Under the pieces are notes generated by a model that saw only the letters and a program-made list of their open reading frames with translations, was not told the origin of the DNA and ran no database searches. Below are positions 58,933-61,324 of a stretch of 64,000 nt of DNA, piece after piece; within the stretch, counting starts at the first letter, position 1, and every line of letters begins with the position of its first letter. The DNA is from a virus (lineage: Duplodnaviria > Caudoviricetes). Both the position numbers and the translations under genes were made by a program. Location of the stretch: the IMG/VR virus record IMGVR_UViG_3300042477_000769. One strand, 5' to 3'.

Positions 58933-59436
58933 ATGAGCCATACAGTAAGACTTGGTGATTTTTTAGGGACAGAATTAGAAGAAGATTTTATTAATTTTGA
59001 TTTTACCGAAATACAGAAAGTATTAACACATTTACAAGAGACAGATGCTTTGGACTTAGTTCATGCCGAGTTTTTACAACAGCAAGCGTTGCGAGGAGCG
59101 GATATTGTTTCTGAATATCTCGGCAAGATTATTAAAACAGTTGGATATTTAGAGGCTAAAGTTAATAGAACTAAAAATAAAGTCTCTTTAGAATATAAAG
59201 CTCCGGATGGAGAGCGAACTACTTTAGACATGAAAAAATGGGCCGGAGAGTCTTCTCTAGAGGTAGAAGAGGTTCAGATTAAATTAGCCAAAGCTAAAGC
59301 TTCTAAAATTGTATTGGAAAAAAAATATGATATTCTGATTAGAAGTCATCATCACTATAAAGATATTGCTCAGGGATTAAGAAGAACTGTCTTAGGATAT
59401 AATTCTACTACTAAAATTCCCGAAGGATATGAGTAG
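58933..59436 (+). CDS. Coiled-coil protein, possible UvsY-like recombination mediator
   Basis: Helical protein directly upstream of recA; assignment from context only. Confidence 0.35.
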   Translation: MSHTVRLGDFLGTELEEDFINFDFTEIQKVLTHLQETDALDLVHAEFLQQQALRGADIVSEYLGKIIKTVGYLEAKVNRTKNKVSLEYKAPDGERTTLDMKKWAGESSLEVEEVQIKLAKAKASKIVLEKKYDILIRSHHHYKDIAQGLRRTVLGYNSTTKIPEGYE

Positions 59437-61324
59437 AATTGCTAAATTAACTGATGCTATCTTAGATGCTCGACTCCCATCTTCCATTAAAAGAATAGAT
59501 TCAGTCATTACTGCTAAAACAAAAATTACTTTTCAATGCGCACTATGTGATTATCAGTGGCTAGCTAAACCTGATAATATCTTGCATGGCAAAGGCTGCC
59601 CAGCCTGTGCCAAGTCGCTCCCTTTATCTAATGAAATTGTAGACCAACGTTTACTAGGTCGGCCGACGCAAAGAGTCGGAGACTATATTAATAGTCGAAC
59701 TAAAATCTGGTTTAGTTGCAAAAAGTGTCATTATCAATGGTTAACCACCCCACATACTATCTTAATTGATCAATGTGATTGCCCCAAATGTCACAAGTTA
59801 AGAAAAAACGAAACACTAATTAATGATCTATTGATTAACTTAAATATTAAGTTTGAAACTCAAAAAGATATTCGGGCTTTTAATAATCAAGAAGTTAACA
59901 AATATTATGTTGATTTTTATGTGCCAGAGTTGCGTTTAATTATTGAATATAATGGTCATCAGCATTATGCTCCCGTTCGTTTTGGTAATAGATCGCTAGC
60001 TAAGTCAACTCAAGCCTTTCAAAAACAACAAATTAGAGATAATTATCTTCGGTCTTTTTGCTTTAATAATAACCTGAATTTATTAGAAATTGATGGCCGA
60101 CGGTATTATTCAAATAAATTAACCACGTATTTAACAAAATTACTAACTGATATAGAAGGAAGCATGAAAAATTACGATTCTTTTTTTAAAACATACTCTG
60201 ACAACGAAGAACAATTAGACTTTAAAATGGCGCATGAAACGGTAGGAGAAAAGCTACCCGTTATTTCAACGGGATCATTTATTTTAGATGATGCTTTATC
60301 TTCTGGAGGATTGCCAGAAGGCAGACTCATTCAATACTATGGCGCTCCGGGTAGTGGTAAAACCTTATTAGCCATGTTAGCTATTAAGGAAGCTCAGCAA
60401 CAAAATCCTTCAGCAGACCAGGTATTTATTGATGCGGAACAGACGTTTTCGCCTACTTGGGCAGAATCTCTAGGATTAGATACTTCTCGTATTATTTTGA
60501 TTCAAGGCGATACGGCAGTCAATGGTCGTAAATGTTTTGAAATGTTATTAGGGGTACCGAAAGAAGATGTGAGAACGCATACCTTAAAAGGTCAGGCTAA
60601 AGATGGTTTGTTAGATAAGGTGGCGAATAAGGAGTTTGATATTAATTTGATTGTGCTGGACTCGTTGGGCTCTATTATTCCCCCCGGAGAAGACATCTCC
60701 GCCGTTGGCAAAATGAACATCTCCCTCCTAGCCCGCTTCTTAACCACCACCTTCCGCAAGCTATCTTTAGCTCTTTCTAAAACCAATTGCCCATTAATTA
60801 TCATTAATCATAAGAAAACCAGCATGGATCCTTATGGTTCCGATCATACTTTTTCTGGTGGCAATACTTATGCTCACTTCTTGAGTGCTAACGTCTATTT
60901 TGAACCTGTCAATCGGGCTGATGCTAAAATTTTAGATGAAAAAGAAAACAAAATTGGGCAAACCATTCGAGCTACGATCGAAAAGTCTAAATTTGGTCCT
61001 TGGCCACGCAAGTGTGAATTTAAAGTAGATTTTGGTATTGGAGTCATTGATAAGCATGAAGAAATTGCCACCTTAGCTTTAGATTATAATGTAGTGCAAA
61101 AACCCACTAGTGTGACTCATGAATATGGAGAGCGAAAATGGGTTGGTTTTGCTAAGTTTTGCGAAGCTATTCAATCTGATGGTGAGTTAGCGGCAGAATT
61201 ATTAGCTAAGATTAATCATGCTCGAGATTCTAAGTTAGAAACTAAGAGATTAGAGCAAGAAGCTAAAAAAGCCGAAAGTTTAGAGAAGGCTGGAAAATCG
61301 AAAAAAGGTAAAAAAGATGACTGA
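59429..61324 (+). CDS. In-frame fusion ORF: zinc-ribbon/Vsr-like endonuclease (about 245 aa) + RecA
   Basis: N-terminal part paralogous to 16952..17857 (YVDFYVP..LIIEYNGHQHY); no stop before RecA. Confidence 0.85.
   Translation: MSRIAKLTDAILDARLPSSIKRIDSVITAKTKITFQCALCDYQWLAKPDNILHGKGCPACAKSLPLSNEIVDQRLLGRPTQRVGDYINSRTKIWFSCKKCHYQWLTTPHTILIDQCDCPKCHKLRKNETLINDLLINLNIKFETQKDIRAFNNQEVNKYYVDFYVPELRLIIEYNGHQHYAPVRFGNRSLAKSTQAFQKQQIRDNYLRSFCFNNNLNLLEIDGRRYYSNKLTTYLTKLLTDIEGSMKNYDSFFKTYSDNEEQLDFKMAHETVGEKLPVISTGSFILDDALSSGGLPEGRLIQYYGAPGSGKTLLAMLAIKEAQQQNPSADQVFIDAEQTFSPTWAESLGLDTSRIILIQGDTAVNGRKCFEMLLGVPKEDVRTHTLKGQAKDGLLDKVANKEFDINLIVLDSLGSIIPPGEDISAVGKMNISLLARFLTTTFRKLSLALSKTNCPLIIINHKKTSMDPYGSDHTFSGGNTYAHFLSANVYFEPVNRADAKILDEKENKIGQTIRATIEKSKFGPWPRKCEFKVDFGIGVIDKHEEIATLALDYNVVQKPTSVTHEYGERKWVGFAKFCEAIQSDGELAAELLAKINHARDSKLETKRLEQEAKKAESLEKAGKSKKGKKDD
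60164..61324 (+). CDS. recA: RecA recombinase (probable internal start)
   Basis: GAAGGA SD before ATG 60164; ISTGS..LD.AL..GGLP.GR, GAPGSGKT, FIDAE, VLDSLG, KSKFGP. Confidence 0.9.
   Translation: MKNYDSFFKTYSDNEEQLDFKMAHETVGEKLPVISTGSFILDDALSSGGLPEGRLIQYYGAPGSGKTLLAMLAIKEAQQQNPSADQVFIDAEQTFSPTWAESLGLDTSRIILIQGDTAVNGRKCFEMLLGVPKEDVRTHTLKGQAKDGLLDKVANKEFDINLIVLDSLGSIIPPGEDISAVGKMNISLLARFLTTTFRKLSLALSKTNCPLIIINHKKTSMDPYGSDHTFSGGNTYAHFLSANVYFEPVNRADAKILDEKENKIGQTIRATIEKSKFGPWPRKCEFKVDFGIGVIDKHEEIATLALDYNVVQKPTSVTHEYGERKWVGFAKFCEAIQSDGELAAELLAKINHARDSKLETKRLEQEAKKAESLEKAGKSKKGKKDD

Follow-up and report, generated by a model that had tools for sequence, protein, structure and literature searches.

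The recA locus and its reading frame

We analysed a 64,000-nucleotide (nt) stretch of the record IMGVR_UViG_3300042477_000769 (Duplodnaviria; Caudoviricetes), a giant phage of lake water, referred to below as the window, and in particular its recA gene, which is joined in frame to an upstream gene for a putative homing nuclease. The list of open reading frames (ORFs), like the raw sequence, gives a single plus-strand frame of 631 codons, from the ATG at 59429 to the stop at 61322–61324. No stop codon interrupts it, and the nuclease consequently lacks one of its own: residues 1–245 make up an intact nuclease, residues 246–631 a complete RecA, and the junction reads ...IEGS-MKNY.... An in-frame fusion of a 245-residue nuclease to a full RecA had been proposed in the original prediction, and both the open frame and the nature of the two halves were confirmed. 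The absence of intein motifs at the junction held as well, as no Hint or intein family of Pfam matched the 631-residue protein. An intein identity was rejected on this ground and because the nuclease is N-terminal, which leaves no N-extein.

The nuclease starts inside the preceding gene, which is the upstream neighbour of recA in all relatives compared and has no PHROG match (Table 1). The end of this gene, ..I-P-E-G-Y-E-stop, is common to the window and to the related contigs L006 and L008, and the ATG at 59429 lies within its Tyr-Glu codons (tATGag), giving an overlap of 8 nt. The hexamer GAAGGA had been reported before both potential start codons, and it is indeed found 1 nt before ATG 59429 (59421–59426) and 3 nt before ATG 60164 (60155–60160). 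The first copy is not, however, a ribosome site in its own right: with its 1-nt spacing it represents the conserved Pro-Glu-Gly codons of the upstream gene, and it is kept in L006, which carries no nuclease, and in L008, where the nuclease starts 83 nt further on. Translation from 59429 probably begins through coupling with the upstream gene, the stop of which follows 5 nt downstream.

Table 1. Features of the fused locus and position of the free nuclease paralog in the window
Feature	Position	Strand	Evidence
Conserved gene of unknown function, 167 aa	58933..59436	+	Synteny; same C-terminal coding sequence in relatives
Nuclease residues 1-124, two tandem DUF4379 treble-clef zinc fingers	59429..59800	+	Pfam, alignment, AF2
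Nuclease residues 125-245, Vsr-like (DUF559) catalytic domain	59801..60163	+	Pfam, Foldseek, invariant columns
Junction, ATAGAAGGAAGC-ATG-A	60150..60167	+	Raw sequence, L008 alignment, independent assemblies
RecA/UvsX-like recombinase, 386 aa from M246	60164..61324	+	Pfam, PHROG, homolog alignment
Free nuclease paralog, 301 aa, three fingers and nuclease domain, own stop	16952..17857	+	40% identical

The nuclease half

Pfam detects two DUF4379 domains followed by DUF559 (30.8 bits, cutoff 20.6) in residues 1–245, with CapR also matching in the finger region, and the PHROG families matched are annotated as homing or HNH endonucleases. The zinc-finger cysteines (37/40/57/60 and 97/100/118/121) are invariant in the family alignment, and the fingers presumably form a DNA-recognition module. 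No NUMOD family matched the 631-residue protein; its N-terminal region consists of the two DUF4379 fingers instead. The AlphaFold2 (AF2) model of the nuclease (predicted local distance difference test, pLDDT, 90.9) has two repeated units of a helix and three strands, then an alpha/beta domain whose last helix (228–244) ends at the junction. Because a free family member with two fingers, P0259, is 250 residues long, residues 1–245 represent a full-length nuclease and not a fragment. The free paralog at 16952, which had also been predicted, was borne out (Table 1); it has three fingers, compared with two in the fused nuclease.

Foldseek placed the structures 1cw0/1vsr of Vsr from E. coli (probability 1.00, template modelling score by target 0.54–0.60) and the catalytic domain of the homing endonuclease I-Bth0305I (3r3p, probability 0.99) at the top of its matches, with modest E-values of 2e-3 to 9e-3. 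Residues D162, E173, H179 and D204 are invariant across 17 members of the nuclease family, and the Asp-to-His spacing of 17 residues is the same as that of D196–H213 in I-Bth0305I. A sequence profile search of the PDB gave no significant match and did not reach 3r3p, so that the relation to Vsr and I-Bth0305I rests on the fold and on DUF559. Together, the model and these residues would place the enzyme with the Vsr-like/EDxHD homing endonucleases.

The recombinase half

Pfam assigns residues 246–631 to RecA (118.9 bits) and PHROG to its UvsX-like recombinase family (189 bits); they contain the Walker A motif GAPGSGKT. Among 5.8 billion proteins searched, hundreds were RecA homologs, and the best 120 of these were analysed. 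These are free-standing proteins of 365–409 residues, 73–82% identical to the window RecA, and they come from metagenomic contigs of up to 447–480 kb, that is, from huge phages. No close relative was present in GenBank phage records, in which the best RecA match was approximately 32% identical.

End-to-end alignment with 16 homologs (71–79% identity) showed that every invariant column is retained in the window. At columns with conservation of 95% or more, the RecA core shows five private changes, all of them conservative, compared with a median of one in the other homologs and nine in the RecA of L008; we read these changes as divergence of the lineage and not as decay. In the same alignment, Met1 of the free homologs coincides with M246 (MKNY.. 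versus MSNKLEAFF..), as it does for more than 100 free-standing relatives of 385–409 residues, which identifies ATG 60164 as the ancestral start of recA.

Another kind of mobile element is found in the same gene of related huge phages. Three RecA proteins, P0143, P0145 and P0322 (L171:4001-6253), carry a LAGLIDADG intein of about 350 residues in the P-loop (GA.G|SGK) and do match Hom_end_hint; their genes are 63% identical or fall in the 90% cluster of P0064. Taken with the upstream nuclease, these inteins indicate that mobile elements of at least two kinds have entered recA in this phage group.

The insertion site and an unfused ortholog

In three related contigs, L005, L006 and L002, recA is free of the nuclease. 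Their gene order is dnaE, two to three small genes, the gene of 167–170 residues, a spacer of 25–100 nt and recA, followed by three small genes, ruvC, dnaJ and the primase gene. The window has the same order, but the spacer is filled by the nuclease. The closest database homolog of the nuclease, the four-finger protein P0122 (54% identical, 372 residues), is encoded by contig L008 at exactly the same site, between a gene of 168 residues and a recA of 403 residues. The nuclease is thus polymorphic at a single position, absent from L002, L005 and L006 and present in the window and L008. This is the comparison of loci in relatives that the original prediction had suggested, and it revealed that the nuclease of L008 is not fused.

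The two junctions differ by one base. In L008 the nuclease ends ...S-D-I-D-S-A-stop (GAT ATA GAT AGT GCA TGA), and its TGA overlaps the ATG of recA (ATGA). The window counterpart reads GAT ATA GAA GGA AGC ATG AAA; it is one base longer than the L008 junction (ATAGATAGTGC-ATG-A), the DNA alignment giving 5 nt between GATATAGA and GCATGA, compared with 4 nt in L008. This extra base in the last codons puts the TGA at 60165–60167 out of frame. Deletion of one base from the window would yield ...D-I-E-G-A-stop and an ATGA overlap like that of L008. The simplest history compatible with these sequences would be that a one-base change in length slid the nuclease frame onto that of recA, and we infer that the change ran from the overlapping to the fused state.

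The N-terminus of RecA has D-N-E-E in the window (60164–60240) and in L008 (L008:9116-9200), the only two nuclease-bearing alleles among the 120 homologs, whereas D-S-x-x stands in all the others. The pattern hints at a shared flank, which is not borne out by DNA identity: an analysis of sliding segments of the 5' end of recA yielded no distinct sign of a co-conversion tract, none of the segments being closer to L008.

Reproducibility and rarity of the fusion

The exact 631-residue protein is present in a collection of 15 billion proteins (NCBI, JGI/IMG and Logan), and the copies of the fusion genotype were found only via this exact-protein index. In five independent assemblies, from two JGI samples (3300044855 and 3300042470) and three SRA runs (SRR11646531, SRR27428154 and SRR27430812), contigs cross the junction and show 100% identity with the window over up to 2726 nt. 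This rules out a one-off assembly error and makes a systematic one very unlikely, as it would have had to recur in five assemblies at a site that is not a homopolymer. Since the copies do not differ from one another, they amount to a single clonal genotype. The exact junction pattern, with or without the extra base, had no match in IMG/VR or in the JGI metagenome contig collection.

In one metagenome (JGI 3300049594) the assembly of the fusion genotype breaks inside the locus, into contigs L001 and L176. One of the two ends 130 codons into the nuclease; the other begins 27 nt past the ATG of recA and shows one mismatch close to its tip (60215 T>A). The break may stem from low coverage at the locus or from heterogeneity among strains.

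To place the junction within the family, we used 161 nuclease loci, consisting of the 80 best from IMG/VR, the 80 best from JGI metagenomes and L008. Relative to the window junction, family ORFs end at a median of -3 residues (5–95% range -9 to +20, n=161). C-terminal extensions of more than 100 residues occur at 4 of the 161 loci and correspond to extra zinc fingers, an NFACT-R domain or weak hydrolase matches, none of them to RecA. No second nuclease–RecA fusion was detected among the 161 loci or in the protein searches, and an exhaustive phmmer search of 1.84 billion representatives gave no protein matching both halves. Long RecA relatives of 740–752 residues were considered as candidate fusions and rejected, since they bear inteins. 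L008 is the only one of the 161 loci with recA downstream of the nuclease. In an unrelated IMG/VR contig (L020:2-1774), a family member of 347 residues with four fingers lies 66 nt downstream of a UvsX-like gene; this links the family with recombinase genes independently for a second time.

Neighbouring genes and regulatory signals

On the 3' side of recA (62080–63998) are genes for a candidate zinc-containing gp32-like single-strand-binding protein (236 residues), a RuvC-like resolvase (191 residues) and a DnaJ homolog, which indicates that the fusion sits in a replication and recombination module. Upstream (51229–57666), dnaE is spread over three ORFs of 1328, 404 and 412 residues, compared with one gene of 1157–1171 residues in L005, L006 and L008. 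The middle ORF (55217..56431) is itself a nuclease gene, and its stop overlaps the ATG at 56428 of the last dnaE piece (ATGA).

A conserved 20-nt motif, AAATGGGCGTC(C/G)GATATATA, precedes recA within the spacer of two relatives that lack the nuclease (L005:5937-5956 and L006:5946-5965), with no matches in the window at up to three mismatches. It might serve as a phage promoter or belong to the target of the nuclease. A scan for promoters and terminators gave counts near chance and no usable site.

Products of the locus

Since no stop precedes 61322, ribosomes starting at 59429 would make a product of 631 residues (approximately 72 kDa), and every nuclease molecule would carry RecA. The original prediction had offered two products, the fusion and free RecA, as one option. 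Free RecA of 386 residues is probably also made, to judge from the sequence around the internal start: the ancestral ATG 60164 has been kept, AAGGA precedes it by 3 nt and the mRNA there is free of structure, which together make internal initiation plausible. The duplex of this Shine–Dalgarno-like (SD-like) motif was calculated at -5.7 kcal/mol, stronger than for approximately 75% of the genes in the window, and the structure score around the ATG was z = +0.97.

The AF2 model of the whole fusion (pLDDT 70.8) was obtained with a shallow RecA alignment. It represents the last helix of the nuclease and the first helix of RecA as one continuous helix, 228–254 (pLDDT approximately 60–66), with no linker. 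In bacterial RecA, the first helix contacts the neighbouring subunit. If the model is correct, the fused form may polymerize poorly or cap filaments.

Origin and significance of the fusion

We favour, with reasonable though far from complete confidence, an explanation in which a homing nuclease inserted in the spacer became fused to recA by a one-base change, free RecA is probably also made, and the fusion is a recent accident that has been tolerated. A nuclease composed of two DUF4379 modules and a Vsr-like/EDxHD-type domain would have come to occupy the spacer upstream of recA. As in other phage homing endonucleases, it would cut the nuclease-free allele near recA in a co-infecting relative and be copied in by recombinational repair. 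Its original TGA would have overlapped the start of recA (ATGA), as it does in L008 and in the nuclease gene that precedes the last dnaE piece, until a one-base change in length within the last three nuclease codons moved the two frames together. Ribosomes from 59429 would now make the 72-kDa fusion, and free RecA would also come from the ancestral ATG 60164. We read the outcome as an accident in one phage strain and not as an adaptation.

Several observations weigh against parts of this explanation. The nucleases of L008 and the window are only 54% identical, so that to read the short variable segment as 'one inserted base' is the most economical choice but does not reconstruct the event. The fusion contigs, all 100% identical, offer no divergence on which selection for or against the fused frame could be tested. 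Cluster representatives can hide fused members in the searches described above, as the 631-residue protein of the window itself sits under a representative of 365 residues. Finally, AAGGA is 3 nt from the ATG of recA, closer than the 4–8 nt typical of most GGAG-type motifs in the window, so that internal initiation may be poor, and most or even all RecA might then be supplied as the fusion. In its strict form, with negligible initiation at 60164 and all RecA made as a working 72-kDa recombinase coupled to the 167-residue gene, this last alternative seems to us unlikely. It would agree with the junction of L008, which is without any SD motif and where recA seems dependent on ribosomes from the nuclease ORF. 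The phage has been sampled repeatedly, and the fused gene is the only RecA within the window, although the window covers 64 kb of a genome of roughly 450 kb. Additions at the N-terminus can be compatible with filaments, as Rad51/RadA recombinases naturally have an extra N-terminal DNA-binding domain, but the linker-less helix 228–254 suggests a bulky and rigid addition that may hinder filament growth. Preservation of the ancestral ATG and of the purine-rich motif also speaks against an obligate fusion. That the extra base in GAAGGAAGCATG is a sequencing or assembly error, and that the real phage has the normal ATGA overlap of stop and start, we regard as scarcely credible: a single base would suffice to create the fusion, but the same junction occurs in five independently assembled contigs from different JGI samples and SRA runs, the site contains no long homopolymer, and neighbouring genes show no frameshifts relative to those of relatives.

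The original prediction had also put forward a nuclease tethered to the recombinase as an efficient homing strategy. Selection would then have favoured the fusion for bringing the recombinase to the nuclease's own break, or the nuclease to sites of recombination, with better homing or repair as the result. All residues invariant in the families are kept in both domains, the genotype persists across several samples, and the nuclease family recurs at recombinase genes: upstream in L008, downstream of the UvsX-like gene in L020 and, for I-Bth0305I, in a recA intron (PMC3239194). These observations are compatible with such a strategy, but no result gave it positive support, and we find it improbable and do not retain it. 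The fusion is one base from the normal ATGA overlap, the orthologous nuclease of L008 is unfused, and a single clonal genotype has no fused counterpart among the 161 loci or in the protein searches. RecA does not load on fresh ends but on single strands left by resection, and in co-infected cells it would be supplied in trans, so that a tether would bring no obvious gain. Equally doubtful, in our estimation, is the idea that the 72-kDa protein is a working nuclease–recombinase, which would join RecA filaments or bring RecA to its own cut, coupling cleavage to repair and raising the efficiency of homing. If this were true, the protein would be a natural counterpart of the engineered nuclease–recombinase fusions that favour homology-directed repair.

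An accidental, tolerated fusion has its own interest. L008 and the window phage, unfused and fused, form a clean before-and-after pair, illustrating how easily a selfish nuclease gene packed by an ATGA overlap becomes part of the protein of its host gene. Loss of a stop codon in this manner is a plausible first step towards domesticated or composite proteins. It also raises the question of how well a RecA-family protein tolerates a DNA-binding nuclease of 245 residues on its N-terminal contact helix. An active fusion would be a model from nature for the tethering of a site-specific nuclease to a recombinase; an inactive one would belong to the ordinary natural history of homing endonucleases in a genome crowded with such elements.

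Comparison with known systems

Homing endonucleases of the Vsr-like/EDxHD type are known as stand-alone inserts and as inserts in fractured genes (Dassa et al. 2009, PMC2677866), and I-Bth0305I is the nuclease of a recA intron in Bacillus phage 0305phi8-36 (Taylor et al. 2011, PMC3239194). The window nuclease resembles these enzymes in its C-terminal Vsr-like fold, probably in its conserved acidic and His residues with the 17-residue Asp-to-His spacing, and in its phage setting, since they too occur in or next to genes of DNA metabolism, including recA, and as stand-alone inserts. It differs in having tandem DUF4379 treble-clef fingers in place of the NUMOD/helix-turn-helix region of I-Bth0305I-type enzymes, in lying neither in an intron nor between intein halves, and in having no stop of its own. 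The free-standing Seg and Mob endonucleases of T4-like phages, known for 'intronless homing' (PMC2988022), likewise occupy an intergenic spacer beside a conserved gene, are patchily distributed among related genomes and are tightly packed with their neighbours. However, they are GIY-YIG or HNH enzymes with their own stop, whereas the Vsr-like nuclease of the window reads into the neighbouring gene.

Continuity with host coding sequence is known from 'core creep' and related processes in organelle genomes, in which homing endonuclease ORFs are fused in frame to host exons (review PMC8393795). In both cases the selfish ORF is continuous with the host sequence and shares its expression signals. 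In core creep, though, the nuclease lies downstream of an exon, in an intron that is spliced; in the window it lies upstream of a whole gene, nothing is removed, and the event looks recent and non-recurrent. The insertion elements of the ShiLan type in methylase genes of actinophages (Arsenault, Gosselin and Gogarten 2025, PMC11855218) are also described as phage homing elements without features of inteins or introns, read through in frame with the host gene. Their HNH nuclease reportedly lies within the host gene in a different frame, whereas in the window the nuclease itself is in frame, at the N-terminus.

Homing endonuclease genes beside or inside recombination genes, fusions to organelle exons and unspliced in-frame phage elements are well known. 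What sets the fusion described here apart is RecA as the partner, a junction clearly one base away from that of an ortholog that is not fused, and the demonstration that the genotype is in circulation.

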